From Candidatus Parcubacteria bacterium (GTDB taxonomy: Bacteria > Patescibacteriota > Saccharimonadia > Saccharimonadales > 2-12-FULL-41-12), in NCBI GenBank assembly GCA_019347895.1, contig JAHWKM010000004.1, forward strand, positions 1 through 61,524: a stretch of 61,524 bases of DNA, written 5' to 3'. Position 1 is the first letter of the stretch. The number at the start of each line of letters is the position of its first letter. Both the position numbers and the translations under genes were made by a program. Below, piece by piece: positions 16,767-53,805 of the stretch. The notes beneath the pieces are model-generated. The model was given only the letters and a program-made list of their open reading frames with translations, searched no databases and was not told where the DNA came from.

Positions 16767-17785
16767 CTTTTAACCTCTGGAAATTTTAAGATATTTTTAT
16801 AGATTGCGGCCAGCAATAAAATACCGGCCAAGACCAAAATTCCGCCTACCAGATAATAAATTCCGGCCGCCGCCGCATTAAACTCTCTGATGACGGGGCT
16901 AATTATTTCAGCCACCATTTTGTCATCGGCCGCTGCCGGCAGCAGTTTGCCCGTAGTAAAACTTATAAAAAATGGAGCCAGCAAGGTTATCGCGCCAACC
17001 CCGACCAGTATTTTGGCAATCCGGATCAGCCCCTTTCTTTTATCAATGCTGGCCAGATATACGCCGGCGGCTAACAGGACAGACAAAACAGCTAAAAAAA
17101 CCGGCACTTTCTTGGCTAGCTGGAATTTGTCCGGCAGGTTTGAGTCGTTGCTGAAGACAGGTTCGCCCTCTTCATTTTTAAGCTCTTGGGATTCGAACTT
17201 GGTATCGCCGAGAAAATCAGGGTTATTGGCTAGTTCGGCCTTAGCCTTTTCGGCTTCCGCGGCGACGCTAACGCCTGGCGGCAGGCACTCCAAATTAAAA
17301 ATATCGACGGTATTTGGGTCCAGCTGGCGCAAACGCTGGAAGGTGCATACCGGAAGCTTCACGGCTTTGTCGGCTTCAGCGTCAACAATCTTGCCAATGA
17401 ACTCGTTCCTGGCGTTAGTAGCATCTATTTGAAACTCAGGCCGGCTGGTCTCGCCCTCAAGCCAGGCGTATGTACCGTCAAGGGCCGTCTCTATACTGGT
17501 TTGGAAAAATTGCGGGTTAAAACTATCCAGCGCGGCTTGTTTAACCTGCGGATCGCCGAGGTCTATCTGCGAAGTTTCATTTTGATTTTCTTTTTTAATA
17601 TTTTCATACACAACTCCTGGAATTTTTTCGTATACCCCGCTGTCACTGAGAACGTCCTTCACTTTATTCGGCTTGGCTGCCAAGTAGCTGAATACCGCAG
17701 AAGTTGCCAAAAACAACAAGCTGATTGCCAGCAAATAGGCAAAAACGGCGACCATAAACCACCTGAGGGCTTTTCGGATATTCAT
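16763..17785 (-). CDS. Membrane protein (1+3 TM, extracellular domain with Cys pair)
   Basis: Hydrophobicity pattern; overlaps aroB start. Confidence 0.7.
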   Translation of the reverse strand: MNIRKALRWFMVAVFAYLLAISLLFLATSAVFSYLAAKPNKVKDVLSDSGVYEKIPGVVYENIKKENQNETSQIDLGDPQVKQAALDSFNPQFFQTSIETALDGTYAWLEGETSRPEFQIDATNARNEFIGKIVDAEADKAVKLPVCTFQRLRQLDPNTVDIFNLECLPPGVSVAAEAEKAKAELANNPDFLGDTKFESQELKNEEGEPVFSNDSNLPDKFQLAKKVPVFLAVLSVLLAAGVYLASIDKRKGLIRIAKILVGVGAITLLAPFFISFTTGKLLPAAADDKMVAEIISPVIREFNAAAAGIYYLVGGILVLAGILLLAAIYKNILKFPEVKR

Positions 17786-17868
17786 CCCGTTAGAATTTCC
17801 TCCGGTTGCATCTTAGCGCCATAATTCTCCACTTTATCTTGTTCCGCCAACATTCTAACGGGATTCAT
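17780..17868 (-). repeat. Family A start-codon hairpin element, copy 1
   Basis: ATGAAT-CCCGTTAGAA...TTCTAACGGG-ATGAAT on the minus strand; 28-aa ORF 17868-17782 stops on the ATGA of the downstream gene. Confidence 0.85.
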
Positions 17869-17916
17869 CCACTAATTGTACCGCAATCTTACAAAGGTTA
17901 TAATTGAAACATGACA

Positions 17917-18083
17917 GAAGCCTCCGCACTTGAGTGTCCAATGTATTTTCTCGATGAGCAACGGAGTGAGCTGTACAGGACGTACTGCTCGCGAGTAGCG
18001 CAGTCGAAAAATACATTGGGTGCCAAGAGTGCCTTGCAAAGTCTGGCTTTGCCAGGCTTGGAAAGGCACGGTGCGCAGGTTTC
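17917..18083 (+). repeat. Family B ~170-bp structured element, copy 1
   Basis: CGCACTTGAG...GTAC-loop-GTAC...CCAAGAG...CGGTGCG; 58-aa ORF 17911-18087 overlaps the next ATG. Confidence 0.85.
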
Positions 18084-18269
18084 ATGACTCCGTTTTTCAT
18101 AGCTTTTATTATGGCGGCCGGCGTGACGGCTTGGGTATATGACAAAACCCAGCAGCGCACAGGCAACAATACTTCTTCTTCCGCCACTTTAGCGGCTGCT
18201 GCCGGCGTAATAGTATTCATAATCACTTTAACCATCCTTAGCCTAATTGACGATTATCTAGGCAATTAA
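18084..18269 (+). CDS. Small two-TM membrane protein
   Basis: 61 aa, WVY.K..RTG.N motif between TM helices. Confidence 0.7.
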   Translation: MTPFFIAFIMAAGVTAWVYDKTQQRTGNNTSSSATLAAAAGVIVFIITLTILSLIDDYLGN

Positions 18270-18319
18270 CTCTAAGACAATTAAATCCATCTCTCCTTCG
18301 ATTAATCATAAAAAATAAT

Positions 18320-18347
18320 CAGACTAGCGTACTAGTACGCTAGTCTG
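18320..18347. promoter_or_regulatory. Perfect 28-bp palindrome (operator candidate)
   Basis: CAGACTAGCGTACT|AGTACGCTAGTCTG upstream of an XRE-HAD fusion gene. Confidence 0.5.
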
Positions 18348-18455
18348 TCCGGCCTTCGGTGTTTTTAACTGATTTGTCTAGCCGGTTTAGGCTAATATTT
18401 TTGCTAATTTTCGGGTGCAACTGGTATTATATGGCCAGATAAGGTGGGTAAATAA

Positions 18456-19298
18456 ATGGATGAAAGAGAACTGGCTGCAAAAATTGGTGATGCCCGGCGC
18501 AGCTCAAGTCTAACGCAGCAGCAGCTTTGCCAAAAATCCGGCTTGAGCTACTCTACGCTAGCCAAAATTGAGCGCGGCGCTATCAAGTCCCCGTCGGTCT
18601 TTACCATTCAGCAGATTGCAGAGGCACTGGGAACATCCCTAGACGCTCTTTTAGGTATTGACACCGTTTCAGCTTCAAAACGGCCTAAAAAACGCTCTAA
18701 AAGCGGTGTGGAATTCGTGTACTTTGACATTAACGGCTGTTTAGTCCGGTTTTTTCACCGCGCCTTTGCCGCCGCCGCCCAGGCCACCGGGGCTTCGCCC
18801 GATGTGGTGGAAACGACTTTTTGGCACTACAACGATGCGGTTTGCCGCGGCGAGCTGCCAATGGAAGAGTTTAACGCTATCCTTGCCCGCCAATTTAATG
18901 TAAAAGGTTTCGACTGGATGCCGTATTATATGGCGGCTGTCGACCCGATAAAAGAAACGGCCGAGCTATTGGATTGGGCGCACGAACATTACCGGATCGG
19001 GCTGCTGAGCAATATCATGCCTGGATTTATCGCCGCAATGATTGAAAGCGGAATTTTGCCTGACATAAAATATGACCAAATCATTGATTCCTCAGATGTA
19101 AAAGCTATCAAACCAGAGCCGGAAATCTACAATCTTGCCGCGGAAAAAACCGGCTTGGACCACAAATCCATCATGCTGATAGACGATTCCCGGGCCAATC
19201 TAATGGCCGCCGGTAAACTGGGCTGGCACGTCCTCTGGTTCGACGATTATGATCCTGTTGAATCAGTCAAACGTATCAAAGCCGCCCTGGAATTCTGA
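18456..19298 (+). CDS. XRE-family HTH fused to HAD-like hydrolase
   Basis: LTQQQLC..SGLSYSTLAKIERG HTH; FDINGCL, LSN, KPEPEIY, IDDS motifs. Confidence 0.88.
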   Translation: MDERELAAKIGDARRSSSLTQQQLCQKSGLSYSTLAKIERGAIKSPSVFTIQQIAEALGTSLDALLGIDTVSASKRPKKRSKSGVEFVYFDINGCLVRFFHRAFAAAAQATGASPDVVETTFWHYNDAVCRGELPMEEFNAILARQFNVKGFDWMPYYMAAVDPIKETAELLDWAHEHYRIGLLSNIMPGFIAAMIESGILPDIKYDQIIDSSDVKAIKPEPEIYNLAAEKTGLDHKSIMLIDDSRANLMAAGKLGWHVLWFDDYDPVESVKRIKAALEF

Positions 19299-19315
19299 TT
19301 TAAAAAGAACTTGAT

Positions 19316-20530
19316 TTATAGTTTTTCTACAAATTCTTGGTATGACATGCCTATTTCCTTAAGGACTTTTTTTGTCCCCTTAGGATCTTTAATAAGGCCT
19401 CTACCTAGTGCTGTAGACATGCCTGTTCCCGGGTTATAAATAATTGGATGTTTACCTCCATTTCTCACAATACAACCTAATTGCTCAAATGCGGAAATAG
19501 CTTGGCTTACGGTAAGCCCAGAGGGTATGTCAGCTCTATCTCCGGACTGTTTAGAAGCAGCCTCTTGAGCTTCTCCTAAACCTTTTGGAGGTTTATCTAT
19601 GGTTTTACTTTGCTCGGAACGTCTTGGCTTCTTTCCGTTTTTATCTACCCTGCCACTAGATTGTCCCTTTGCTTCCTCTAAAAGCCCGGCAAGTTCATCA
19701 TTTAGATCCTCTAAAGCCTCTTCTTCCCAGGGCCGATATTGGCGAGACAGCCGTTTCTTGGCTTCCTGCGGCAGTTTATCAATATGTCTTGACGTTACCA
19801 TTTGTCCGAGCTGTTCGGGGTCGCGCAGTGCCGCCAGAGCATTTACTAAATCAATAAGCGCCTCCCGCAAATCTTCTTCGCTGCCATTATCTACTACAAC
19901 ATCGGGTGGTTGCCTTTCAATACCAAATTTTTTAATAGCCCAGCTGGCCATTCTTTTTATAGGACCGTCTTCTATAGGATCGCTTGAAGTTTCTGAAGGT
20001 GGGGGTAATGGTGAATTTAATTCAGTAACAATTTGAGCAGAGGCCTTTGCTTGCTCGCGGAGACCTTTTTTGATGTCTCCCAATGTGCTTCTCAGCTTAT
20101 TTTCGCTGACTAATTGAAGATCGTCCGGTTCATGTCCGCGGATTTTTTCTAAAAAGGTACTTTTGGATTTATTAACAATTTCCCCGTGTCTCTCTTGATA
20201 TTGTGCGCGTTTTTCAGCGTCCATTGCCGGATGTGAGCTTTGATTTGGAGCTTTAGGTACTTCGCCGGGGTATCGCTGTTCAATATCCGACGCCAGTTCA
20301 TCTCTAATTACCGGAAAAATTTTTTCAGTATTTTCAGCAAGTTTTTCCCTGGCATTATCAATGCATTGGGCGTTTGCTGCTTCTTCAATCGTGCTAAGTT
20401 CGGATGCCGCACTAAGGAGGTCTACTGCGGTGAGTTCCGAAAGCGGCGCAACTCCCTCTTCCCTTTGATGTTGAGGTGTTGGGGCGGCCTCAAACCTACT
20501 TTCAGCCGGAAAATCTAATGCTGGCATCAT
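19316..20530 (-). CDS. Orphan helical protein with C-terminal HicA-like domain
   Basis: C-terminus AISAFEQLGCIVRNGGKHPIIYNP...TKKVLKEIGMSYQEF resembles HicA. Confidence 0.6.
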   Translation of the reverse strand: MMPALDFPAESRFEAAPTPQHQREEGVAPLSELTAVDLLSAASELSTIEEAANAQCIDNAREKLAENTEKIFPVIRDELASDIEQRYPGEVPKAPNQSSHPAMDAEKRAQYQERHGEIVNKSKSTFLEKIRGHEPDDLQLVSENKLRSTLGDIKKGLREQAKASAQIVTELNSPLPPPSETSSDPIEDGPIKRMASWAIKKFGIERQPPDVVVDNGSEEDLREALIDLVNALAALRDPEQLGQMVTSRHIDKLPQEAKKRLSRQYRPWEEEALEDLNDELAGLLEEAKGQSSGRVDKNGKKPRRSEQSKTIDKPPKGLGEAQEAASKQSGDRADIPSGLTVSQAISAFEQLGCIVRNGGKHPIIYNPGTGMSTALGRGLIKDPKGTKKVLKEIGMSYQEFVEKL

Positions 20531-20594
20531 ATAGTTTAATTATAGCATAAAACATATTAAAATTCAAGCCTGATAAAATTATTGAAGCGATGAT

Positions 20595-23234
20595 TTAGTC
20601 ACTTTTTTGACTAGCAATGTATGCCGTGAGAGTTTTTAGTTCGGACCTCTTATCTCTTAACTGAGCCTCGGATTCATTAACGAGATTCGAAGGCGCCTTT
20701 TTGGCGTAGCCGGGGTTGCCCAAGCGAACTTCCAGATTTTTTATTGATTCTTTTAGTTCTTTAGAGCGTTCTTGTAGAGACTTCAAGTATTTTTTAGCTT
20801 CCTCATCGTCCACCTCAAACCAAACTGGCTCGGTAGTTTGGGTTAGCTTTAGTCCCCTTCCATCCTCAGTTTTAACTAATGATTCCAACTTGGCCAGTGA
20901 TTTTATTAGAGGTTCGTTGTCGGCCACAATTTGCGAGTTTTTGAACAGCGCGTTTCCGTGCTGTTTGACCAGAGCGGTTTTGATCTGGCGTATTTCACGG
21001 ACTATTTTTTGCACTTGTTCAAATTGTTTGGCTTTTTTAGCGTCAAATTTAACTGGCTTAGGCCACTGGGCGGTGATTAACAATGTGTCATCCTCGGCAT
21101 GAAGGGTTTGCCAAATAGTCTCTGTTATAAACGGCGCGAATGGGTGAGCTAGCTTCAAAATAGTTTCGAGAACATGGTCTAAGACAGTCGAATTTAACTC
21201 GGTTTTGCTGGCTTCGATGTACCAGTCGGCCACATCGTCCCAAATTAAGTGATACATACGATAATAAGCGCCGCTGAAATTAAAATTACTGATTGCCTCG
21301 TTGATTGATTCGCCAGCCTCGTTTAATTTGGCTATTACCCAATGGTCGGCTGCTGTTTTTGGCTCCGGTTGCGAGCCAACAGCTAGTTCAGAGGTGCTGG
21401 CCTCGATGTAGCGGGCGATGTTCCAAAGCTTGTTGCAGAAGTTCCGGTTGGCTTCGGCCTTAGCGGTTCCCCAATTTTGATCGTTGCCCGGCGACACGCC
21501 CATGATAAGTGCTAGCCGCAGGGAGTCAGCGCCGTATTTTGGTATGACACTCAGCGGATCGACAATGGATTCCGGTCGGCTTTTGCTCATTTTCTTGCCG
21601 TCTTCGGCCCGGATCATACCGTGCAAATAAACCTTTTTAAACGGTACTTCCCCGGTGACGTAAGTCGTAGCCAAAATCATTCGAGCCACCCAAAAAAATA
21701 AAATATCCCAGCCGGTTTCCATAACATCTGTCGGGTGGTATTTTTGAAAGTCCCGGCTGTCCTTTAGAATTGCTTCAAGCGAAAGCGAGCCGTCAACAGC
21801 AAGCTTCGGGTCAACCAGAGTACTCCATGTCCAAAGCGCCGATGAAAACCAAGTATCCAGGGTATCGGGATCCTGCTGCCATTCATGAAAACCTTCGCTT
21901 TGATCAGTTGGGGGCGCTATTCCCACGTAAGTTTCTTCCCTATTGTCAGTGTCGATTCTGTACCAAACCGGGATTCTGTGGCCCCACCATATTTGGCGGG
22001 AAATGCACCAGTCGCGCAGGCTGTCGATCCAGTGGAAATAAGTTTTTTCAAACCGTTTTGGCACAATCTCAATGTCGCCTTCCCTTATCACAGATTGCAT
22101 AACTTCTTTCAGGCTGTGTTTTTTGCCTTTCCAGTCCACTATTTTTTTATTGACGTCAACGAACCACTGCAGTTTGATTTGCGGCTCGATAACACCTTTG
22201 CCTCGGTCATTTAGGGCGATGTTATGCACATATTCTTCATCGATACTGACCAGCAAACCCTTCTTGTTTAATTTTTCAACAATTTTTGGCCGGGCTTCGG
22301 CGATGTTTATGCCCTCAAACTCGCCGGCAATCGGCAAAAGCTTGCCGTGGAAATCAATAATTTGCTCTTTATCCAGTCCATGTCGCTGGGCAATTTCAAA
22401 ATCTACATGGCTATGAGCCGGCGTGATTGTCATAACACCGGTACCGAACTTTGGATCTACCGCCTCGTCCTTGATAACAGTGGCTGTAATAGGCCCGTTA
22501 ATCCACTCCACATCAATAGTGTCGCCGTGTTTGTATTGAGCGTAGCGTTCATCATCAGGATGCATAATCACATATTTGTCGCCGAATTTGGTTTCCGGCC
22601 GGGCGGTGCCGATCTCAAACGGGCCGTATTTTAATGTATAGAATTTGGATTTTTCTTCTTGGTAGACTAGTTCATCGTCTGAGACGGTTGTTTGCAGGTT
22701 CGGATCCCAGTTGACGATGCGGTAACCTCTGTAAATTAATCCATCCTCATACATTTTAATGAACGTTTCATTAACGCAGCGGTTCAAAGAGTCATCCAAG
22801 GTGTATCGTGTCCGTGACCAGTCGGCACTGGCGCCAATCGCCCGCATTTGTTCCAGCATGGTATTGCGGCTATTGCCGACAAATTCCTTGGTTCTTTTTA
22901 AAAATTCGTCTCGCCCAATCTGGTGCTTGTCGGTTCCTTCGTCAGACAGCTGTTTTTCAATAAGTGCGTTTACCGCTAGGGCCGCGTGGTCCGTGCCGGG
23001 CAGCCAAAGTGCGTCCTTACCTTTTAGCCTGGCGTGGCGGATCATTATGTCTTGCAGGGTTAAAAATAGCGCGTGGCCGATACTGAGCGTACCGGTCTCA
23101 TTCGGCGGCGGCATACTGATGACAAACGGCTCTTTGCCGCTTTTAGGATTAGCATAAAATGCCCCGCTGCGCTCCCACAGCTTATAAATATCTTTCTCGT
23201 ACTGCTCAGCCTCGTAAGTTTTAGGAAGTCTCAT
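20595..23234 (-). CDS. valS: Valyl-tRNA synthetase
   Basis: PPPNETG..SIGH, DWCISRQIWWGH, KMSKS, C-terminal coiled coil; ATG at 23234 after TATACT. Confidence 0.97.
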   Translation of the reverse strand: MRLPKTYEAEQYEKDIYKLWERSGAFYANPKSGKEPFVISMPPPNETGTLSIGHALFLTLQDIMIRHARLKGKDALWLPGTDHAALAVNALIEKQLSDEGTDKHQIGRDEFLKRTKEFVGNSRNTMLEQMRAIGASADWSRTRYTLDDSLNRCVNETFIKMYEDGLIYRGYRIVNWDPNLQTTVSDDELVYQEEKSKFYTLKYGPFEIGTARPETKFGDKYVIMHPDDERYAQYKHGDTIDVEWINGPITATVIKDEAVDPKFGTGVMTITPAHSHVDFEIAQRHGLDKEQIIDFHGKLLPIAGEFEGINIAEARPKIVEKLNKKGLLVSIDEEYVHNIALNDRGKGVIEPQIKLQWFVDVNKKIVDWKGKKHSLKEVMQSVIREGDIEIVPKRFEKTYFHWIDSLRDWCISRQIWWGHRIPVWYRIDTDNREETYVGIAPPTDQSEGFHEWQQDPDTLDTWFSSALWTWSTLVDPKLAVDGSLSLEAILKDSRDFQKYHPTDVMETGWDILFFWVARMILATTYVTGEVPFKKVYLHGMIRAEDGKKMSKSRPESIVDPLSVIPKYGADSLRLALIMGVSPGNDQNWGTAKAEANRNFCNKLWNIARYIEASTSELAVGSQPEPKTAADHWVIAKLNEAGESINEAISNFNFSGAYYRMYHLIWDDVADWYIEASKTELNSTVLDHVLETILKLAHPFAPFITETIWQTLHAEDDTLLITAQWPKPVKFDAKKAKQFEQVQKIVREIRQIKTALVKQHGNALFKNSQIVADNEPLIKSLAKLESLVKTEDGRGLKLTQTTEPVWFEVDDEEAKKYLKSLQERSKELKESIKNLEVRLGNPGYAKKAPSNLVNESEAQLRDKRSELKTLTAYIASQKSD

Positions 23235-23280
23235 GAATGATAAGTATACCACCTCTGTTCTTTGTGCCAAAGAAGGAAGG

Positions 23281-23862
23281 CATATTCTTCTGATCAAGGA
23301 ACCAATTTCGGCGGTACTTCGTACCTACCCCGAGTTCCTTTTTTGTCTGAAAAAAGGAACCGAAAAAGCAGACAGGCGGCTTCCAGTTCTTGAGGAGTTC
23401 ATTGTCAAGAAGCACAATGCTCGGAAAACTCAGCTTGCCCTTTATTAATTTTTAGCCTCGGCAAGCTTCAGACACTTCCTCGCGAGAAAATGTGCTTTTG
23501 ACATTCACTCATCAGGAACTTCCAGAGCCTGGATAAAAGCAGATGAGAAAAACTTGTTTTTCTCAGGTAATAGATAATGGAAATTCGACTTTTGGGTTTG
23601 GGCATAGAGAGACGTCCTGATTGGCGAATGTCAAAAGCACAATTATTCGCTGCAGAAGCGAAGCGAGGCAGTGTTTAAGCCCCGCCATCCTATGGATTTA
23701 TTAAGGCGGGGTGAGTTTACCGAGCATTGTGCTCTTTGACAATGAGACAGTCAAGATGACTCGACGCCCAATCGGTTTGGAATACCTTTGCCGAAACAAA
23801 GGTATTGATTTGCTTCTTTATCTAAAGAAGTATGGGCTTGGTTCTTCAGCAGAGAACATATG
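23281..23862. repeat. Family C large nested-palindrome element (long form)
   Basis: Nested inverted repeats; GTTCCTTTTTTGTCTGAAAAAA..AACCGAAAAAGCAGACAG shared with ~59800. Confidence 0.8.
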
Positions 23863-24020
23863 AGGTTTCACGTGAAATTAGGGTAATTTAACTCACAGCT
23901 CTTTTTAAAAAGCTTGAAGTTAAATCACTCTAACCAGTTAGTTTTGACGCGATCTTACCAGTGGAGCAAGACAGTCCTTATAAACTTTTTGTTTTCACTT
24001 ATTAGTTTAAATGCTTGCGC

Positions 24021-25130
24021 TTACATCTGCAAGCCGGGACTTATTTCTAAGGCCTTAGGATCGACTGGCTTTTTGCCAGATTTGGCTTGGTAATAGGCAT
24101 GGGCGGCTATCATGGCGGCATTGTCGGTACAAAGTTTGATGTCGGTATATTCTATTTTGGTCGGTAAACGCTCGCTCAGCTGTCTTCTTAGCTCTTTGCT
24201 GGCAGCTACCCCACCGGCTATTACGACGCTTTTTGGCGCGAATTCATCATACGCTTGGATGGTTTTATCCACTAAGGCTTCTATGGCGACATAGGAAAAA
24301 CTAGCTGCAATATCGGCTTTCTGAGCTTCGGAGAGCCTACTAGCCAGCCTATAAGAGGGAAATGAATAATCTTCTTCGCCTATCGCTGACTGCCCGGCAC
24401 GTAAAACGGCAGTTTTTAAGCCTGAATAGCTGAAGTCATACTTGCCCGGCATTTTAGCCTTAGGCAGTTTTACTTTAGTTGGATCGCCGTTTTGGCCGGC
24501 AATCTCCACACTGGGACCGCCAGGATAGGGCAGGCCGAGTATCTTGGCCACCTTGTCAAAAGCTTCGCCGACAGCATCATCCTGCGTTCGGCCTAAAACC
24601 TGGTATTTGAAATGGTCCTCAAACAAAACCAACTGGGTGTGCCCGCCGCTGACAATGAGCGCCAATATTGGAAATCTTGGCGCAGTAGTTGGCAGTTGGT
24701 AGATCGTAGATAGTGAAGATGATGATGAAGTGATGAAATTGGCGTAGACATGGGCTTCAACATGGTTTACAGCGTACAGCGGCTTATTTTTAAGAATTGC
24801 CAGCGTCCGGGCTGTCAATACCCCTATCAATAGACTTCCGCCCAGTCCCGGCCCACGGGTCACAGCAATAGCATCAATACTAGACCATAAATTCCTATTT
24901 GCGAGGCCCGGCCTTGCAAATGCTTGGGAGAGGGCTTGGTCGATAACGGGGATAATACTTTCAAGGTGGCTGCGAGCAGCGATTTCCGGCACAATACCGC
25001 CGTAGACCTTTTGCAAATCTAGGGAGCTAGCTACTGAATTGCTAAGCAGCCTAAGCCTTCGCTGTCCAGCGAACTCCACCACCGCTGCGGCTGTCTCATC
25101 CGCACTGCTCTCAATCCCCAATATTTTCAT
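24021..25130 (-). CDS. tsaD: tRNA t6A threonylcarbamoyltransferase TsaD
   Basis: ILGIESSADET, GGIVPEIAAR.H, GPGL, H..AH, SGGHT, TDNAAMI. Confidence 0.97.
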   Translation of the reverse strand: MKILGIESSADETAAAVVEFAGQRRLRLLSNSVASSLDLQKVYGGIVPEIAARSHLESIIPVIDQALSQAFARPGLANRNLWSSIDAIAVTRGPGLGGSLLIGVLTARTLAILKNKPLYAVNHVEAHVYANFITSSSSSLSTIYQLPTTAPRFPILALIVSGGHTQLVLFEDHFKYQVLGRTQDDAVGEAFDKVAKILGLPYPGGPSVEIAGQNGDPTKVKLPKAKMPGKYDFSYSGLKTAVLRAGQSAIGEEDYSFPSYRLASRLSEAQKADIAASFSYVAIEALVDKTIQAYDEFAPKSVVIAGGVAASKELRRQLSERLPTKIEYTDIKLCTDNAAMIAAHAYYQAKSGKKPVDPKALEISPGLQM

Positions 25131-25153
25131 CTGTTTTACTGTATCATTGTTGT

Positions 25154-25247
25154 ATGAATCCCGTTAGAACCCATACGGTTAAATCCTGCAAAATTTCTCA
25201 GCAATTACCCAATAAATTAATTTTATATGAGTTCTAACGGGATGAAT
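25154..25247 (+). repeat. Family A start-codon hairpin element, copy 2
   Basis: ATGAAT-CCCGTTAGAAC...GTTCTAACGGG-ATGAAT; 27-aa ORF 25154-25237 ends 4 nt before the murE ATG. Confidence 0.85.
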
Positions 25248-26522: not shown

Positions 26523-26537
26523 ATATTGACAAGGATT

Positions 26538-26595
26538 TTGGCACTCTGATATTGTGAGTGCTAGAACGTTAGCACCCGTTGCGAGGGAGTGCTAA
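26538..26595 (+). promoter_or_regulatory. Tandem CIRCE (HrcA operators) over the groE promoter
   Basis: TTGGCACTC-N9-GAGTGCTAG (26538-26564) and TTAGCACCC-N9-GAGTGCTAA (26569-26595); TTGACA at 26526. Confidence 0.92.
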
Positions 26596-26620
26596 CGCTT
26601 ATTAAGCTAAAGGAGGAAAA

Positions 26621-26914: not shown

Positions 26915-26997
26915 ATGGTTTATAGTTTTTAGTTTATGGTTGATAGCTTGAGTGGAACTACCAAAAACCACAAACAATAAACCAACAACTACAAACG
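26915..26997. repeat. Imperfect inverted heptamer-repeat tract
   Basis: TGGTTTA TAGTTTT TAGTTTA TGGTTGA ... AAACCAC AAACAAT AAACCAA CAACTAC. Confidence 0.7.
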
Positions 26998-27016
26998 ACT
27001 GAAAGGAGTTTGGATT

Positions 27017-43535: not shown

Positions 43536-43537
43536 AA

Positions 43538-43951: not shown

Positions 43952-43973
43952 ATTTAAGATAAAATAGTTATTA

Positions 43974-45353: not shown

Positions 45354-45389
45354 TCAAAGCCATCCAAAACCTTGTTTTTGATGATTTTA

Positions 45390-45959
45390 TTACTGTAAAT
45401 TGACTTTTATGCCATCTGAGAACGCGCTGTCATGCAGTTCTGCCGAAACGGGTTTTTGCCCTTTTGGTATATCAAATACTAAAACACCTTCAACGCTGTT
45501 ACCGGGGTTGATTTGAGCTAAGAAAACATCGCTGTTATTGCTATTGTAAAGCGTCGCTGTGCTATCTGGCGAAAATTGTTGACCTTCGGCGTTTAGTAGC
45601 TTTTGGTCTCCTTCAGAAAAGTACTGTTGTTCATTTCCGATATTTTTGACGTTTATTGTCATCAGGCAGTATTGACCTTGTGCCTTTTTGCGTAAAGCGT
45701 CACTATCCGGACTTACTACTTCAGTTTTACCGCACTCGACTTTTTTAACTGTAAATTCAAACTTACCGTCGCGGGCAGCTTCGCCAATTTTTGCTACCGT
45801 TGCTTGCTCGGAATTCCCCTCTTCATTATTAGGCGGTTGTTGATTGTCGCCAGATGAATTAGGAGAATCGCTTCCCCCTCCAGCGGCACCAGCTATGCCG
45901 GCAACGATTAGTAACGCCAAAATTACGGTTATTATTTTATGTTTCTTGAACCACTCCAT
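45390..45959 (-). CDS. DUF4352 domain membrane-anchored protein
   Basis: RDGKFEFTV, INPGNS..G.LVFDIP, ELHDS. Confidence 0.85.
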   Translation of the reverse strand: MEWFKKHKIITVILALLIVAGIAGAAGGGSDSPNSSGDNQQPPNNEEGNSEQATVAKIGEAARDGKFEFTVKKVECGKTEVVSPDSDALRKKAQGQYCLMTINVKNIGNEQQYFSEGDQKLLNAEGQQFSPDSTATLYNSNNSDVFLAQINPGNSVEGVLVFDIPKGQKPVSAELHDSAFSDGIKVNLQ

Positions 45960-45961
45960 TT

Positions 45962-46031
45962 ATAAACTCCTAGTTTATTTTATATCTGTAAATAAATTAC
46001 AGCATTAATCAATAATAAACAACTAGTTTAT
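45962..46031. promoter_or_regulatory. Paired ATAAAC-N5-GTTTAT operator candidates
   Basis: Perfect sites at 45962-45978 and 46015-46031 between divergent DUF4352 and XRE genes. Confidence 0.6.
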
Positions 46032-46066
46032 GTAACTAACTGTTTATAAACCATAGTCTATTCCAT

Positions 46067-46294
46067 ATGTATGGGTCGGAAGAAAGACTACTAAAAAACT
46101 TCGGCAAACGACTTGCCATCGCAAGAAAAAATAAGGGATTGACTCAACAACAGCTTGCGGAAGAGGCTGGTTTGAGTGTAGTAGCTATCGCTTATCTAGA
46201 AACTGGTAAAAGATGGGCTCGCATAGGAACGCTAAATAAACTTTCGAAGTGTCTTAACGTCGATATTTCCGATTTCTTCAAAGGCGTTAAATAA
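46067..46294 (+). CDS. Small XRE/C-protein-like HTH regulator
   Basis: FGKRL..ARK.KGLTQQQLAE.AGLS...I..LE.G. Confidence 0.88.
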   Translation: MYGSEERLLKNFGKRLAIARKNKGLTQQQLAEEAGLSVVAIAYLETGKRWARIGTLNKLSKCLNVDISDFFKGVK

Positions 46295-46304
46295 TCTGAG
46301 AAAT

Positions 46305-46598
46305 CGAAGTAATTTCCTTATCTGCTTTTCTTTCAGCATTGAGAAAACCGATTGGCTTGAATCAGGTTTGTCCGAGTCACTGAAGCAAAAGCTAGTCCAG
46401 CTCGCTCCTTAAATAAAATAGAGATGGACCGGCCCCGGAGGGACGTTTTTTGCTTCACGGACAATCCTGGTATCTCAAGGCAGTAGTGTTTTATCACCTG
46501 CTGCGGCACTTTTTGCCTACTTTTTGTTGCTGCAGAGAAAAAGTAGGAATTCGGTTCCTTATTGAAGGAACGATGGCTTGGTTCTTCGCCAGAAGAAC
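46305..46598 (+). repeat. Family C structured element
   Basis: Aligns along its length to the reverse complement of 59776-60034, with compensatory changes. Confidence 0.85.
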
Positions 46599-46602
46599 TT
46601 AT

Positions 46603-47343
46603 TTATAAACCGAAAAACTCTTCCATGGTTTGGTCGGTTTCATGGAGCTTTGCGGCCAGTTTTTCGCCTACATATCTAAAATGCCACGGTTCATACTGGT
46701 ATCCGGTGATGTTTTTCTTACCTTGCTTGTAGCGCAGAGTGAAGCCGTATTTGTGGGCGTTTTGGGCCAGCCATTTTCCCTCAGGGGTTTCGCCAAAACA
46801 GATCTCCAGATAACATTTTCTATCGGCTCTTGATATATCAAAGGCCAGTCCGGTTTGGTGTTCGCTGGTTCCCGGGCGGGCGCTGTACTTGTCGGCCGCA
46901 GCTTGTCCGTCGCGGGCAACGTAGCCGTTATAATAAACTGCCTGCAAATCAGCCGATCTGTAACCGCTGGCAAATAGCAGACGGTAGCCGGCTGTTTGGG
47001 CGTCTGAAAACATAGTTTCTATCCTTTCATCCACGCCGCTTTTTATTTTTTGTTCCTCGGCGCTGTCGGTAGGATCGCGTCTGACTTCCGGTGTTGCTAA
47101 TTCCGTAGGCACATAATCGGTCGGGATTGGACGCTGCTTGTTGACTATTACCCATAAGCTAGCCGGATCAGTCAGCGAATACTGGATTTTGTCGAATTCA
47201 TCTGGATTGTTATTTTCTTCAGCTTGTTCATTCTGTTTTTGGCGGTCGGAATCCGGAGTATTAGTCCTCTTTCCACCTATAAAAAAATAGGCCGAGCCGC
47301 TGGCTATAAGCAAGATTAAAAGAATTACTAAAAGCTTTTTCAC
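46603..47343 (-). CDS. D-alanyl-D-alanine carboxypeptidase (M15B/VanY-like)
   Basis: SGYRS, PGTSEHQTGLAFD, EPWHFRYVG. Confidence 0.93.
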   Translation of the reverse strand: MKKLLVILLILLIASGSAYFFIGGKRTNTPDSDRQKQNEQAEENNNPDEFDKIQYSLTDPASLWVIVNKQRPIPTDYVPTELATPEVRRDPTDSAEEQKIKSGVDERIETMFSDAQTAGYRLLFASGYRSADLQAVYYNGYVARDGQAAADKYSARPGTSEHQTGLAFDISRADRKCYLEICFGETPEGKWLAQNAHKYGFTLRYKQGKKNITGYQYEPWHFRYVGEKLAAKLHETDQTMEEFFGL

Positions 47344-47378
47344 CCTTAAAATAATAACACTGTATAATATTGAAAATG

Positions 47379-47551
47379 ATCAGAAATTTCACACTTGAGT
47401 GCAAAACGGAATTTATTGGAGAGCAGCGGAGTAAAACGTACAAGTGGTACGTTGCACGAGCAGCGCAGCCAAAATTTGCGTTATGTGCCAAGAGCGGCTT
47501 GCAAGAGCAAACTGGTTTTGGGCTGGAAAGGCGCGGTGCGTAAGTTCTGAT
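47379..47551 (+). repeat. Family B element, copy 3
   Basis: CACACTTGAG...CCAAGAG...CGGTGCG; 55-aa ORF 47376-47543 ends 6 nt before the orn ATG. Confidence 0.85.
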
Positions 47552-48092
47552 GAAGATTGATAAGCATTTAGTGCCAACCAAACTTCTTTGGATTGATTTG
47601 GAGATGACAGGACTTGATTCGGAAAAAGACGTTATTTTGGAAGTGGCCGCCGAAGTAACTGACTTTGATTTTAAAACCTTGGCGTCTTACGAAGCGATAA
47701 TAAAGCACAAAAACCGGTCATTGAAAAAAATGAATGACTGGTCCAAGCTGCAGCACAAAGCCAGCGGTTTAACGGAGCGCATAAAAAAAGAGGGCAGAGA
47801 CGAGCAAGAGGTAGTTCATGAACTGGTCGGTTTTATCAGGGCGGAGTTTGGTAACGAGCCGGCAATTCTAGCCGGCAACTCTATCCATAACGACCGCAAG
47901 TTTATCACCCGCTGGTGGCCAGAAGTAGAAGACCGGCTGCATTACCGCATGCTGGACGTAACCAGCTTTAAAATTTTAATGCAGGCTAAATACGGAGTGA
48001 GTTTTGCCAAAAAAGACGTCCACCGTGCCTTCGACGACATCCAAGCCTCCATCGCCGAACTACAGTTTTACCTTGAAAAATTGAAGCGCTAG
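47550..48092 (+). CDS. orn: Oligoribonuclease
   Basis: WIDLEMTGL, AGNS, HYR.LDV.S, HRA.DDI..SI.EL. Confidence 0.95.
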   Translation: MKIDKHLVPTKLLWIDLEMTGLDSEKDVILEVAAEVTDFDFKTLASYEAIIKHKNRSLKKMNDWSKLQHKASGLTERIKKEGRDEQEVVHELVGFIRAEFGNEPAILAGNSIHNDRKFITRWWPEVEDRLHYRMLDVTSFKILMQAKYGVSFAKKDVHRAFDDIQASIAELQFYLEKLKR

Positions 48093-48166
48093 AATTAATT
48101 TTTTTCGCACTTCGGTCCTGAAGCTGTATTGACAAATACTAGGGAGCATGATAATATATATAAATA

Positions 48167-49417
48167 ATGTCTATAGAGGACGGGCCATCTAGAGAAAACC
48201 CTGCATTTATCGCTCAACCAGACGGAAGCTTTGTTGGAATAAACGAGCAGCGCCGTAAAAACCATGAAGCCGAAATGGATGTTTCTGTACTGCAGGCAGG
48301 AGATGTTCTTGCCGCACGCTTTGATAATGAAGATTCACCCTCGGGTTTTGTATACGAAGTTGAGGAAGCTGTATGGCATGATCTTGGTATTTCGAACTAC
48401 AGTAAGCCAGGACGCAGTCTTAGTGGAAGAATTAACTCCGCGTCTTTGCCCTCAGAGATTAACGGTACGGAGAAAGTAATATTTACAGGCAGCACGTACG
48501 GAGGTTCAATAATCAGTCCAGGACTAATTGCTACTGGAATGTACCCAGAATTTTTCTTAAAAGGGAAAGGTAGATTAACATTTCCGCCAATTAACTACTT
48601 TGTAGTTTTTCGTGCAGATGAACGAGGCTCTCTGCAAGAGATAGAGCCGCAGCAACTAGTTGCCGAAACTTCCGCAAAAAATGAAAAACACACTAAGCGT
48701 GTTGCCGAAATGGATCAAGTGATTGAAGCTTTTAGATTCGACCGCAACCTACGTAACCTAGGCGGCCAAACATATTCAGATGAACGCTACGAAGCTGTTT
48801 TCGATAGTCGAGGCGCGGTTGGTTTAGCAATTCTAGACAAGAAAACAAAGGTATGGATGAAATACCAATACGATGAAGGGCGGGCTTTGCAGATCGGCTT
48901 CGCAAAACTATCAGACATCAAAGAAGCTTATGGGCTTGATGGTAGATTTTCTAGCACAGTTGAACCTATTTATAGAGCAGGTGTGGCTATATCTACACAT
49001 ACTACGTCGCCACGTTATGGGATTGACGTGGTTAATTATAAGATGAGTAAAAAAGAAGCTGCAGACATCGATTTTGCCGGCAAAGATGCATTTCCTCCAA
49101 GTCCTAACATACGTGTTTGGCCTGACGGTTCCCATGATATTGACGATGACAGCTACAAAACTTCAGACGAAAAAAGAATCGAAGATAATAAGAAAATTGA
49201 GGAAGTCTTAGAGTTGCATACGGCTATGGATAGTACAGGTAGAGTTCTGATTATAGACGGCGAGCCTATCGAACTATTTGATCCCTCAACGGAAGCTGAG
49301 AAAATAATAAAACAACTTTCAATAGATACTGAACAGCAATCCCAATGGTCTGAACGGAAGATATATACTTCTGGATTTGTTACAAGAGCTATTAATAAAA
49401 TTACTAAGAAAACCTAA
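48167..49417 (+). CDS. Orphan hypothetical protein (416 aa)
   Basis: Own TTGACA-17-TAATAT promoter; flanked by duplicated orn 3' ends. Confidence 0.7.
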   Translation: MSIEDGPSRENPAFIAQPDGSFVGINEQRRKNHEAEMDVSVLQAGDVLAARFDNEDSPSGFVYEVEEAVWHDLGISNYSKPGRSLSGRINSASLPSEINGTEKVIFTGSTYGGSIISPGLIATGMYPEFFLKGKGRLTFPPINYFVVFRADERGSLQEIEPQQLVAETSAKNEKHTKRVAEMDQVIEAFRFDRNLRNLGGQTYSDERYEAVFDSRGAVGLAILDKKTKVWMKYQYDEGRALQIGFAKLSDIKEAYGLDGRFSSTVEPIYRAGVAISTHTTSPRYGIDVVNYKMSKKEAADIDFAGKDAFPPSPNIRVWPDGSHDIDDDSYKTSDEKRIEDNKKIEEVLELHTAMDSTGRVLIIDGEPIELFDPSTEAEKIIKQLSIDTEQQSQWSERKIYTSGFVTRAINKITKKT

Positions 49418-49450
49418 ATAAAAGCAGCATAGTCTCATCCAGTTCTTTAC

Positions 49451-49580
49451 AAAATCCTTATGCAGGGCTAAATACGGTGTTAATTTTGCCAAAAAGGACG
49501 TTCACCGCGCCTTCGACGACATCCAAGCTTCCATCGCCGAACTCCAGTTTTATATCGAAAAATTAAAAGATACTATTTAG
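49451..49580 (+). pseudogene. Duplicated 3' end of orn
   Basis: Encodes AKYGVNFAKKDVHRAFDDIQASIAELQFYIEKLK; matches ~47970-48092 with mostly synonymous changes and a 1-nt insertion. Confidence 0.9.
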
Positions 49581-49611
49581 CCCAAGCCTTAAAATTTTTT
49601 AATACAACCTT

Positions 49612-49938
49612 TTATAACTTTCTGGCCTTTATTACACTTGCTATGGCTCGGCCTGACAGTACACCTGGAGGTACTTTTTCAGTAGGTTTAGCAGGAACGC
49701 CACTAAACATTACATTTACCAGACTGTCGGCTGCCTCTCCGATAATATTCTGATCCTTGAGTTTACTATAGTAAGCCTCTGGACTCTCGGGTCTACCCAT
49801 TAATTCTTTATCAGGAACAAAATAATGTTGATTTCCTACTATATCTTCATCAGCAAGATGACTATCTGGCGGCAACACAACGCTTTCTCTTCTAGGATTT
49901 TGAGGCTCAATTTTGCCTAGTTCTGCTGAAAATTCCAT
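49612..49938 (-). CDS. Orphan hypothetical protein
   Basis: TTGACA-17-TAATAT promoter and AAGGA upstream. Confidence 0.6.
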   Translation of the reverse strand: MEFSAELGKIEPQNPRRESVVLPPDSHLADEDIVGNQHYFVPDKELMGRPESPEAYYSKLKDQNIIGEAADSLVNVMFSGVPAKPTEKVPPGVLSGRAIASVIKARKL

Positions 49939-50050
49939 TTTTTATTTTTTCCTTAACTTTTACATATTAGCACAAGGTTGCGCTTATGTCAAATATGAAT
50001 TTATGTTTCCTCTGTTTTAGATTTACGTTAGTAAATATATAATAACACGA

Positions 50051-50473
50051 ATGCTGTACCTGTTTTTAGCGATTTTACTTTTTACTACGTTGAGCTTATT
50101 AAGCGCAGCTGCTTCAAGACGAACAAATAGCAATTTAGTGACTCTGATTGTAAATACATTCTCAGTTTTAATGCCGCTCATTATTCTGGCTCCAGCGTTC
50201 ATAAAAAAATCTTTAACCATTGATAAGCCAGCGCTGATAATGACTATAATAGCTGGACTCTGTGTCGGGCTTTTCGCCATGACGGTCAACAAAAGCTTTA
50301 CGCTTAATAAAGTTGGCATAGTGATTCCGGTGGTTTTCGGGGGAACAATAATGCTCACGGCTGTTTTGAGTTACTTTATCTTTAAGGAAACGCTCAAAGG
50401 CTTTGAGCTGGCCGGGCTGCTGCTTATTCTGGCCGGCCTTGGCTTTATAATTTACGCCCGTTCTGTCGCATGA
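50051..50473 (+). CDS. Single-repeat EamA/DMT membrane protein
   Basis: 5 TM, FIFKE.L motif. Confidence 0.8.
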   Translation: MLYLFLAILLFTTLSLLSAAASRRTNSNLVTLIVNTFSVLMPLIILAPAFIKKSLTIDKPALIMTIIAGLCVGLFAMTVNKSFTLNKVGIVIPVVFGGTIMLTAVLSYFIFKETLKGFELAGLLLILAGLGFIIYARSVA

Positions 50474-50820
50474 ATGAAATGAACCACAAAACAGTGGAAC
50501 AATACGTTTTAAGTATGCCGAACGCTAAGCTGGACTATCCTTTTGGCGAGGGAGTGGCGGTGTATAAGGTTAAAGAAAAAATGTTCGCTTTAATCTCTGA
50601 AAATAAAGAACCTCTAAATATCAGCCTGAAATGCGACCCGAAGCTAGCTGAAGTATTACGAGAAAAATATGAGACTGTAATGCCCGGATACCACTTAAAT
50701 AAAAAGCACTGGAACACCATAGTTTTAACCGGCCAGCTGGACTGGGAAGAAATAAAAGGACTGATTCGCCACAGCCATAACCTTGTAACAAAAACCGATG
50801 CCGAAACCCCGCAACTATAA
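50470..50820 (+). CDS. MmcQ/YjbR family protein
   Basis: YPFG, KMFA, LKCDP, PGYHLNKKHWNT. Confidence 0.93.
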   Translation: MNEMNHKTVEQYVLSMPNAKLDYPFGEGVAVYKVKEKMFALISENKEPLNISLKCDPKLAEVLREKYETVMPGYHLNKKHWNTIVLTGQLDWEEIKGLIRHSHNLVTKTDAETPQL

Positions 50821-50855
50821 AGCCTTTGCAAAATATTTTTAAGTGTTGGACTTGT

Positions 50856-51854
50856 TTACTGGGTAGATTCGGGTTTGTCTAGCAATAAATCTATCTGGCC
50901 GAAGGCAGTTTCTATAATTTGTTTTTCGCTGGCATTGGAGCTTTCATAAGCCGCCTGCAGCTGCAGGCGGTAGTTATTTAGTTGCTGATCAAGCAGCGCC
51001 TGGTAGGTTTCGTCAAATTTCCCGCTTTGTTCACCCTGGACTAATAAGGCATCACTTTCGGCGTTTTGGCTGGCTTCAAGTTTTTTCTCCACCTTTTTAA
51101 GTCCCCGGCCGGCCAAAGCGCCAATCAGTTCCAACTGAGACGAACGCATAGTTAACTGGATGTTATTAACCTTAAAAAGTAGGTCGCGGTCGCCAATTTT
51201 CTCCTCGGCAGATTCAGCCACCCGGATAATTTCATGTTGGGTTTGGGCAATTTCCAGCAGCCTGTCCCGGTGGTCGCTGCCAGCGCTGTTTAAAAATGAA
51301 AACACGGTAGAAACCAATATGATTAAAACAATTAATGCCCCTCCCGCGAACATGGCGCGCTTTAAAGTACTGGCGTTGCCAAGGTCAAGCAAAGGCTTTT
51401 TAGGCGGCTTTTGAGGATTCATTATAAATTCATAATCGCTGTCCGGGGGCGAACCGCTCGATCCTTGAGTGTTGTAATCTGGCGGGGCTTGCGCTGATAC
51501 GGTACTGCGTAAAGACCGTCGGGAGCTATTATTATTCGGCAGTACCACCTGGGTTTGCACCGGCCTGTAAGCCTGAGCGGAAGGAGCGCTGGTTCTAAGC
51601 GGTGCAGCCGGAGCTGAACTGGCAGCTCCATAAATAACGTTTTGATGCATGTAAGGCTTAACATATTGCTGCATATGGGCCGGCAAGTTTTTTTGCATTT
51701 GAGCAGTCATCTCATTTTCGATGCGGGCCGGCATACGGGCGCCGCTGTTTTGATATTTTTTAAGGTGAGCCGGCATAGTCCGGTCCATATGGGCCGCCAT
51801 GGATTTTTGTACGGCCGGCGGGATGTAGGCGTTTCTGTTTTCACTGGACGACAT
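50856..51854 (-). CDS. Single-TM hypothetical protein with N-terminal (M/L)PAH repeats
   Basis: YEFIMNP motif, TM, helical extracellular domain. Confidence 0.7.
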   Translation of the reverse strand: MSSSENRNAYIPPAVQKSMAAHMDRTMPAHLKKYQNSGARMPARIENEMTAQMQKNLPAHMQQYVKPYMHQNVIYGAASSAPAAPLRTSAPSAQAYRPVQTQVVLPNNNSSRRSLRSTVSAQAPPDYNTQGSSGSPPDSDYEFIMNPQKPPKKPLLDLGNASTLKRAMFAGGALIVLIILVSTVFSFLNSAGSDHRDRLLEIAQTQHEIIRVAESAEEKIGDRDLLFKVNNIQLTMRSSQLELIGALAGRGLKKVEKKLEASQNAESDALLVQGEQSGKFDETYQALLDQQLNNYRLQLQAAYESSNASEKQIIETAFGQIDLLLDKPESTQ

Positions 51855-51937
51855 AGCTTAATTAAACCATAAGCAACTCTTCCACGGGAAGCCCTCTATA
51901 CTTGATACTTACTGCTTACTGCTAGATACTAATTTCT

Positions 51938-53701
51938 ATGGATGCGGTCAGCGAGGTCAAAGCCCGGCTTAGTATAGAAGACGTTATTAGCGAATACGTC
52001 CGCTTGAAGCGAGCCGGCAAAAATTTTAAAGGTTTGAGCCCGTTTTCAAATGAAAAAACGCCAAGTTTTGTGGTTAGTCCCGAAAAACAGATTTGGCACG
52101 ATTTTAGTTCGGGGCGCGGCGGCGATATTTTTACGTTCATACAAGAAGTAGAAGGAGTGGATTTTAAAGGCGCCCTGGAACTTTTATCCCGCAAGGCCGG
52201 AGTTGATCTGGAAGATTATCGCAAGGGTAGCGATAATAGATCCAGGTTCGACAAAGAGCGTCTGTACAAGGCGCTGGATATGTCGGCCAAATTCTATCAA
52301 AGGCAGCTAAAGGATAGTAATCAGGCCTTGGAGTACATTATAAAAAAACGCGGCTTTGCCAAGCAGACGGTTTTGGATTTCCAGCTGGGATATAGCTCCG
52401 AGAACCAGCGGGGGCTGACTGACTATTTATTGCAAAAAGGTTTTTCCGAGCAAGAGCTGAAACTTTGCGGGCTGGTTAGTACGGCCAGGGGGTTGAATGA
52501 TATGTTCCGCGGCCGGCTGATGATACCGCTGCACGACCAGTTTGGCAAAGTCATCGGTTTTACGGCTCGGATTTTAAACGAGCAATTATCCGGCCCAAAA
52601 TATATTAATACACCCTCCACGCCGCTGTACGATAAGAGCCGGCATATATATGGACTGCACCTGGCTAAGCAAGGTATTCGCACCAAGGACTATTCGGTAA
52701 TTGTAGAAGGCAATCTAGATGTAATCGCTTCGCATCAGGCCGGACAAAATCAGATTGTAGCCACGGCCGGCACTGCCTTAACCGAATATCAAATGAAAGC
52801 TCTGTCCCGTTTGTCGCCCAATGTGCGCCTGAGTTTTGACCAGGATAAAGCCGGCCTTGAGGCCGCCGAGAGAGCCATACCGATCGCTAGCAAAGCGGGC
52901 GTAAACCTGAGCATCATTACTCTTTCATCGGGCAAAGATCCGGATGAGCTTATCAAAAAGGACCCCAAACTTTGGACCGAAGCCATCGACAACGCCGATT
53001 ACGCCGTCGACTGGTTAATAAACCGCTACAAAGAGAAGCTTAATATCTCCACTGCTCAAGGCAAGCGTGAATTCAGCGACGTGATGATAAATTTGATAAA
53101 AACACTTGAAGACCCTGTCGAGCAGGATCATTATGTGAATGTGGTCTCGCAGGAAGCGGCCGTTGACCCTTCGGCCATCCGTCAGAAATTATTTACGGAC
53201 GGCAAATCCATCGACGAAAAACTAAAGCAAATAAGCAGGCCCGCCAATACATTGGACCAAAACAGCCAGCACCAAATAAACAGGATCGACAAATTCCTAA
53301 GTTTGAGCTTAATGCAGCCCGATATAAGACATTATTTGGATTTACTAAGTCCAGATATGCTAATAACCGACGAGCAAGTTAAATTGCTTAAATTTCTAAA
53401 GGAAAATCCGGAATTTGACCCCAGCGCGGCCGATAAAAAGCCTGAGGATGCGACCCAGGCGGAAGACTATGTTAAAATACTAGTGTTACTATTTGAGCAA
53501 TTATACGCCTCAGTTGATGCGCAAGAACTTCACTACGAAGCTCAGCGCCTGAGAGCCGAGACAATCAAATATTTTGTAGAACAACAAAAGGCCAATTTAT
53601 TTGCGCTGCAACATCAAAGTGATGAAGCCGAGCAAACCAAGATTCTCTCTAGTGTCAGGGAACTTGATAAACTACTAAGCCAAACGAAAAGAATTGATTA
53701 A
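51938..53701 (+). CDS. dnaG: DNA primase
   Basis: EKTPSF, FRGRLMIP, PKYINT, VEG..D, FDQD.AG, KDPDE. Confidence 0.97.
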   Translation: MDAVSEVKARLSIEDVISEYVRLKRAGKNFKGLSPFSNEKTPSFVVSPEKQIWHDFSSGRGGDIFTFIQEVEGVDFKGALELLSRKAGVDLEDYRKGSDNRSRFDKERLYKALDMSAKFYQRQLKDSNQALEYIIKKRGFAKQTVLDFQLGYSSENQRGLTDYLLQKGFSEQELKLCGLVSTARGLNDMFRGRLMIPLHDQFGKVIGFTARILNEQLSGPKYINTPSTPLYDKSRHIYGLHLAKQGIRTKDYSVIVEGNLDVIASHQAGQNQIVATAGTALTEYQMKALSRLSPNVRLSFDQDKAGLEAAERAIPIASKAGVNLSIITLSSGKDPDELIKKDPKLWTEAIDNADYAVDWLINRYKEKLNISTAQGKREFSDVMINLIKTLEDPVEQDHYVNVVSQEAAVDPSAIRQKLFTDGKSIDEKLKQISRPANTLDQNSQHQINRIDKFLSLSLMQPDIRHYLDLLSPDMLITDEQVKLLKFLKENPEFDPSAADKKPEDATQAEDYVKILVLLFEQLYASVDAQELHYEAQRLRAETIKYFVEQQKANLFALQHQSDEAEQTKILSSVRELDKLLSQTKRID

Positions 53702-53716
53702 TGAGATGGAGTTATT

Positions 53717-53805
53717 ATGAGTCCCGTTAGAACTTTCAAAAAACCTAAATTTAAGATAGAATATACCACCAAACCTAATTTTACAGGAGTTCTAACGGGA
53801 TGAGC
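53717..53805 (+). repeat. Family A start-codon hairpin element, copy 3
   Basis: ATGAGT-CCCGTTAGAAC...GTTCTAACGGG-ATGAGC; 28-aa ORF 53717-53803 stops on the rpoD ATGA. Confidence 0.85.

Follow-up and report, generated by a model that had tools for sequence, protein, structure and literature searches.

Start-codon hairpins in a Saccharimonadales contig are gene-less copies of a mobile element family that also occurs in a GIY-YIG nuclease-bearing form

Three kinds of described repeats come close to the hairpins analysed here, which lie at the start codons of three genes in a 61,524-nt stretch (hereafter the window, always at its full length) of a Candidatus Parcubacteria bacterium genome (contig JAHWKM010000004.1, assembly GCA_019347895.1). 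According to the portions of the sources drawn on here and below, mycobacterial interspersed repetitive units (MIRUs) are about 40-100 bp long, are flanked by tetranucleotide direct repeats, show empty and filled sites, insert at start codons and hold an internal open reading frame that is coupled at a -4 spacing (PMC12548453, PMC3184786). MITEs (transposable elements of the miniature inverted-repeat type) combine terminal inverted repeats and a target duplication with a length below 200 bp, lack a transposase and have their ends in common with a gene-bearing parent (PMC3184786). In the Ssn/NTS system, a single-domain GIY-YIG nuclease of about 90 residues, SsnA, cuts single-stranded DNA beside its hairpin, the hairpin repeats are also found without the gene, and the authors liken the NTS-ssnA-NTS layout to an insertion sequence (Chenal et al., 2025; PMC11893778). 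The window holds three gene-less copies of a real, mobile and apparently unpublished element family that is MIRU-like in siting, MITE-like in anatomy and Ssn/NTS-like in the class of its enzyme. We found no description of this family in the literature searched, which was mostly open-access; the supplement of PMC11893778, which lists GIY-YIG proteins, could include members.

The sequence CCCGTTAGAA occurs exactly six times in the window, as three inward-facing pairs (17786-17862, 25160-25241 and 53723-53799), and 200 third-order Markov versions of the window produced no equivalent arm pair. A first-pass annotation made from the letters alone had placed three hairpins here, with ATG-to-ATG distances of 83, 88 and 83 nt and three leader peptides, all of which we recovered. 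It had also described the first two codons of the target gene as duplicated, and this has to be revised: the short element measures 79-84 bp in the window, has 13-bp inverted ends, TCCCGTTAGA...TCTAACGGGA, and is bordered by a target duplication of 4 bp (TGAA, TGAA and TGAG in copies 1 to 3) that lies outside the terminal bases T...A (Table 1). In copy 1, the rebuilt ATG takes its A from the final base of the element (17785). The host genome (G000; 907 kb, 92.6% complete) contains 13 arm pairs at up to two mismatches, one of them nested within another, which gives 12 elements. At least three of the four flanking bases are repeated in 11 of the 13 pairs, versus 0-3 for 12 permuted motifs. Since some copies read GTGAAT...ATGAAG and others ATGAAT...ATGAAG, the sixth base is not duplicated and the right-hand A is the element's own; rare tetranucleotides (TGCG, TGCA, CTTG) are also duplicated exactly. 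The arms are perfect over 11-12 bp inside the terminal T/A. The arm search fixed ten bases, and covariation was scored at positions beyond those ten: among 123 unique short copies from metagenomes, the variable positions 11-13 pair in 111-113, and position 14 in only 33. Because positions 11-13 vary yet pair, and pairing falls at position 14, the inverted repeat is 13 bp long.

The interiors, which had been said to look unrelated, are indeed no more alike than shuffles: those of 10 genome copies have a mean identity of 0.485, versus 0.464 for shuffles (sd 0.05), and interiors are mostly unstructured, with z below -2 in just one of 24. Two origins were considered for them and rejected. As remnants of the nuclease gene described below, they matched it significantly neither as DNA nor as protein in six frames (best E 0.25), the resemblance of 'KLILYE' in copy 2 to the nuclease being not significant either; as captured host DNA, they matched over 15-19 AT-rich bp only. 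A ten-base periodicity of element lengths was also rejected, as there is no peak near 89-90. In four genomes of other families (G129, G076, G281, G310), what lies between the same ends is a double hairpin rich in G+C or a further copy of the element nested within.

The window hairpins are true insertions of a mobile element, because orthologous sites are empty, the duplications are locus-specific and identical copies stand at different genes. At the Mur-ligase gene behind copy 2, the relative G007 has identical upstream sequence followed by a single ATGAAT, an exact empty site. An arm was found at this gene in none of five relatives, at rpoD (behind copy 3) in none of five, and upstream of none of the nine inspected orthologues of the gene behind copy 1, whose 340-residue product has no Pfam match. 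Fifteen genes are hit in G004, G007 or G036; 13 of them have a homologue in the host genome, with an arm at none of the 13. Copies that carry a gene tell the same story at two loci, where same-genus relatives keep a single TGAT (four empty folD-like sites) or TGAG (downstream of murA), and two relatives have a short copy at or near the junction of these loci. Every one of the 13 short copies in the genome G343 is bordered by an exact 4-bp duplication, and two of them, 97 bp long and identical in sequence, lie upstream of different genes. The insertion proposed in the first-pass annotation is thereby borne out, with most host-genome copies at start codons and an empty orthologous site in G007. 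Copy 3 may be an old insertion: a contig about 87% identical in dnaG crosses the rpoD junction with a net 12 bases missing and, in the alignment alone, with its gaps on the arms. Contigs of X1, a sequencing run that contains the window, include no joint that skips any window copy, a result of little weight as these contigs probably derive from the source sample; no RNA run was listed as containing it. Four of 41 relatives were found to have the short form, as were 29 of 301 genomes of the phylum (host genome included) and some viral contigs. Three of the latter (L041, L046, L054) have short copies at gene starts with AAGGAG just inside the right arm, and L046 has two paired.

The mechanism had been called unknown; this is less so now, as there is a full-length form of about 280 bp with the same ends, whose sole gene encodes an 86-residue Slx1-like GIY-YIG nuclease. 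Among 27 GIY-YIG loci from five genomes, one (L070) lies between both arms and another (L063) has the left arm and a decayed right one. When arms were sought on either side of a Tyr-Glu codon pair, the scan yielded 121 loci of about 470 estimated stretches, in Patescibacteria and also in Omnitrophota, Planctomycetota, Bacteroidota and others. A GIY-YIG frame is present in 112 of 124 matches and absent from 12, and flanks could be scored in 111. The gene-bearing and short forms have a common end anatomy: in the former, arm positions 11-13 also vary and pair (105-109 of 111, with position 14 pairing in 43 of 111), and rare tetranucleotides are duplicated exactly in 14 of 42 copies, compared with a permutation mean of 0.9. 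An arms-only search of the 301 genomes matched nine, seven of which have the nuclease gene; short copies occur in six of these seven versus 28 of 300 overall, three of the seven being one family and kin not being independent. Two gene-bearing copies about 750 bp apart (L096) have swapped flanks (TTCA..TTTA and TTTA..TTCA), as expected from recombination between copies integrating a segment.

The nuclease is conserved, with Tyr, Gly, Arg, His and Glu invariant across 66 aligned sequences, a mean identity of 62% over 108 sequences and a median dN/dS of 0.20 over 398 pairs. No NCBIfam family scored above cut-off. Its structure model (predicted local distance difference test score 91.5) has UPF0213 BH0048, HIGLE and Slx1 as nearest solved structures, BH0048 alone with E <0.001. 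The stand-alone UPF0213/Slx1-like proteins (1zg2, 1ywl) are thus the closest in solved sequence and fold and have the same minimal domain, but in the portion of the source drawn on they are not described as parts of end-bounded mobile elements (PMC1564403). With respect to Ssn/NTS, two 13-bp arms here enclose the element and pair, whereas Ssn has separate hairpins of 20-50 nt, and the cited portion of that report makes no mention of target duplications or start-codon siting (PMC11893778). The published SRM pattern matches none of 111 elements and none of the three window copies. It matches twice at locus L082, and a weakly resolved tree (53 rows, 86 columns) splits the element nucleases from the group with the SRM-flanked L082 (99/95), a group that may be Ssn-like. 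Among the GIY-YIG genes of the host genome is one gene-bearing copy of a sister family that has other ends, CCCCGTAG...CTACGGGG, encodes a GIY-YIG protein and duplicates TATG where it sits at start codons. This sister family has two copies there, one gene-bearing and one short (G000:C3:31073-31384, L067, and G000:C21:41606-41689), and is also present at L078, L081 and L087.

With insertion, ends, duplication, gene-bearing form and the rebuilding of ATG established, we consider it probable that the window hairpins are gene-less copies moved in trans by the Slx1-like nuclease of the ~280-bp form through a stem intermediate, the role of the nuclease as mobiliser being what we infer. It would recognise the stem formed by the two arms in single-stranded or cruciform DNA, cut at the stem base and make a staggered nick at a TGAA-like target; host ligase and polymerase would then complete the joining and leave the duplication. 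The last A of the element, together with the duplicated TG, rebuilds the ATG. Copies would accumulate at start codons because ATGAA is preferred, gene bodies are purged of insertions and a start-sited copy does almost no harm: a ribosome would begin at the old ATG, open the stem and arrive at the new ATG in any frame. At starts, the full-length form would be provided with expression signals of the host and with a stop codon. Since mobility needs the ends alone and many copies are old, interiors would diverge. A broader proposition, to which we give even chances, is that the family forms a new transposon class among prokaryotes. Its 280-bp element would need no element-encoded enzyme for transposition other than the 86-residue GIY-YIG nuclease, would pass through a hairpin intermediate and would have evolved ends that keep insertion harmless by rebuilding start codons (T...A) or prepilin cleavage sites (C...G), and the window hairpins would be its miniature passengers.

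Several points weigh against the nuclease-driven mechanism. To our knowledge, GIY-YIG domains are hydrolases for which no strand-transfer step is known, and the joining step is therefore left without an assigned catalyst. Exact duplications are missing from 38 of 123 short copies, as well as from 21 of 67 T...A-ended and 34 of 41 C...G-ended gene-bearing copies. The short interiors have no detectable homology to the nuclease gene, so that descent by internal deletion is unsupported. None of the seven GIY-YIG matches in the host genome is a gene-bearing copy with these ends. The sample of 112 copies was chosen by its Tyr-Glu codon motif, and the absence of other cargo cannot follow from it. Arm pairs were scanned at spacings of 45-80 and about 245-290 bases only. 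With regard to passage of the ribosome, 16 of 24 copies of near relatives have a Shine-Dalgarno-like motif before the right arm, and none has it on the other strand, but in the wider set only 13 of 82 do, versus 4, and all 11 start-sited copies of G343 have internal stops in the leader frame. Finally, siting at starts exceeds a null of motif plus survival.

The alternative that survives best, which we nonetheless judge unlikely, makes the nuclease a maintained passenger, like TnpB of the IS605 group, and has an unrecognised DDE, Y1 or host enzyme move the long and short forms in trans. Terminal inverted repeats with duplications of 3-5 bp are the classic DDE signature, and the element fits it. 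Yet the 280-bp form contains no DDE transposase, and a DDE domain occurs in none of the 120 listed longer relatives of the nuclease, one of which has a phage-integrase domain. The enzyme-family search covered only four further families; in 10 carrier genomes it found DDE_Tnp_1 in none, rve in none, IS1595 in two and reverse transcriptase in six (other families, DDE families included, were not searched), and all four are absent from both the host genome and G007. The host genome does have two Y1 transposase genes and one tyrosine recombinase gene. Both Y1 loci lack the arm and are flanked by other palindromes, which also led us to reject membership of the REP (repetitive extragenic palindromic)/REPIN-RAYT or TIRtron-TIRYT systems. 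These resemble the present family in tying palindromes with conserved ends to one small enzyme gene, but their enzymes are Y1 tyrosine transposases (PMC3733652). Arm positions 11-13 covary among the copies of a single genome, as a stem would explain more readily than a pair of fixed binding sites. The short form thus has the inverted repeats, 4-bp duplication, lack of a transposase gene and mobility of a MITE, without a parent that carries a known transposase: the parent, only about 280 bp long, has a gene for a GIY-YIG nuclease instead of one for a DDE transposase, and, unlike in MITEs, interiors are unrelated within one genome. Integron cassettes were rejected as well. An attC site begins with RYYYAAC and ends with GTTRRRY, an order that is reversed here, and the sole tyrosine recombinase locus has no full arm.

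A second alternative, less likely again, is true targeting of translation or transcription starts, for instance through exposed DNA or an RNA intermediate at the 5' ends of genes. Directly behind the element there is an ATG-led open reading frame in 10 of 12 host-genome copies, in 11 of the 13 G343 copies and, among metagenome copies, whose flanks were unconstrained, in 82 of 123, the background being 2.4%. In 70 of these 82, an in-frame stop lies no more than 30 codons upstream. Of the T...A-ended gene-bearing copies, 62 of 67 precede an ATG- or GTG-led frame in the direction of the nuclease and none in the reverse direction, and the target supplies the stop codon (TGA or TAA) in 71 of 111 gene-bearing copies, 96 of 111 having their own Met. 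An A precedes the upstream 4-bp duplicate in 54 of 59 start-sited copies, though the element brings its own A. Even under a generous null, in which any ATGAA outside gene bodies may be hit, the expected share at starts is 0.35-0.47, and 10 of 12 in the host genome remains in excess (P 0.0009-0.011, with crude gene calls). To call the siting strict, as the first-pass annotation did, overstates it for the family, since 41 of 123 short copies are not scored at starts, and the translation-start specificity that it inferred is upheld only in part. ATGAA is found at 60 of 82 hit starts versus 20% of ATG starts in the host genome, C...G-ended gene-bearing copies stand directly before a start in only 2 of 41, and reverse transcriptase was found in neither the host genome nor G007. 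Moreover, 33 of the 120 longer nuclease relatives listed (P0002-P0057) are in-frame nuclease-prepilin fusions in which a GFTLIE-like cleavage motif is rebuilt behind the element, the C...G-ended form using, at prepilin cleavage codons, the TGAA-like tetranucleotide read backwards. Prepilin peptidase would likely cut the nuclease off such a fusion, making this a second harmless landing site. Altogether, targeting looks like a preference for a TGAA-like tetranucleotide combined with survival, rather than recognition of translation starts. A C...G-ended subgroup (L112, L113, L139, L140, L155, L164, L179, L207) ends in TAA directly followed by a host ATG, often with GAGG-like sequence on the left and no visible duplication.

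Because the frame opened by the old ATG often stays open, we suggest that translation from the old ATG may be coupled to the new one, as in mycobacterial MIRUs, although not universally. Of 59 metagenome copies, 33 keep this frame open, where base shuffles lead one to expect 13.8; of eight host-genome copies, seven do (1.4 expected). No length class is favoured. Three frame classes occur at the new ATG: in-frame fusion, TGA overlapping the ATG, and TAA just upstream. The leaders of copies 1 and 3 have 28 codons and a TGA that overlaps the new ATG, the -4 overlap of the MIRU kind, and that of copy 2 has 27 codons and stops at a TAA within the right arm. Part of the new AUG lies within the predicted RNA stem (z -1.8 to -3.6). 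Set against MIRUs by description only, the family differs in several respects: MIRUs are G+C-rich, have imperfect ends and, in the portions of the sources used, no named mobilising enzyme (PMC12548453, PMC3184786), whereas the elements here have perfect ends, unrelated interiors, all three frame classes and a nuclease-bearing form, in a host of unlike kind and base composition. That the short copies are now regulatory leaders kept by the host, with a stem that conceals the start as long as the leader is untranslated, and with mobility as their mere origin, is very improbable: perfect arms beside diverged interiors, the stem over part of the new AUG, the open leader frames and the old-looking insertion at rpoD would suit it, but the targets (rpoD, a Mur ligase and others) have no common function, most orthologues have no insert, leader peptides are not conserved and the gaps in the dnaG-related contig coincide with the arms. 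Rfam covariance models found only tRNAs in the window and no match at nine element loci at E up to 0.1. A lone left arm in the host genome (G000:C6:3252) opens a reading frame (MNPVS...) and may represent a leader that has become part of a host gene.

We know of no prokaryotic element that transposes through a stand-alone GIY-YIG nuclease, the work on Ssn/NTS having only raised the idea. If the nuclease is the mobiliser, the family would be a new class of transposon and an autonomous element of very small size, and target-duplicating insertion would have a new route, a mode of transposition that we did not find described in the literature searched. It could also serve as a model for the movement of MIRU-like elements, for which no enzyme has been named. 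The family illustrates how selfish DNA persists in gene-dense genomes of 0.6-1.3 Mb by rebuilding its landing signal, even in front of rpoD, and its leaders can mislead the annotation of start codons in Patescibacteria.

Table 1. Positions of the three element copies, their duplicated targets and the genes behind them, in window coordinates.
Feature	Position	Strand	Basis
Copy 1, element, 79 bp, T-CCCGTTAGAA...TTCTAACGGG-A	17785..17863	-	sequence
Copy 1, upstream target copy, old ATG + AA (duplicated TGAA 17864-17867)	17864..17868	-	
Copy 1, downstream target copy TGAA	17781..17784	-	
Copy 1, target gene, 340-aa protein	16763..17785	-	matched in 34/40 relatives
Copy 2, upstream target copy, old ATG + AA (TGAA 25155-25158)	25154..25158	+	
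Copy 2, element, 84 bp	25159..25242	+	G007 has the exact empty site
Copy 2, downstream target copy TGAA	25243..25246	+	
Copy 2, target gene, Mur ligase, 426 aa	25242..26522	+	
Copy 3, upstream target copy, old ATG + AG (TGAG 53718-53721), GGAG before	53717..53721	+	
Copy 3, element, 79 bp, AGGAG just inside right arm	53722..53800	+	
Copy 3, downstream target copy TGAG	53801..53804	+	
Copy 3, target gene, primary sigma-70 factor (rpoD), behind dnaG	53800..54900	+	

Other small repeats and nucleases accompany the family in the same genome. Four further stand-alone GIY-YIG genes of the host genome (L059, L071, L075, L080) lie beside tRNA genes or partial tRNA copies. A REP-like palindrome at 24900-24920 of the window belongs to a separate repeat family and is identical to one flank of a Y1 (RAYT-type) gene of the host genome (G000:C20, L017).

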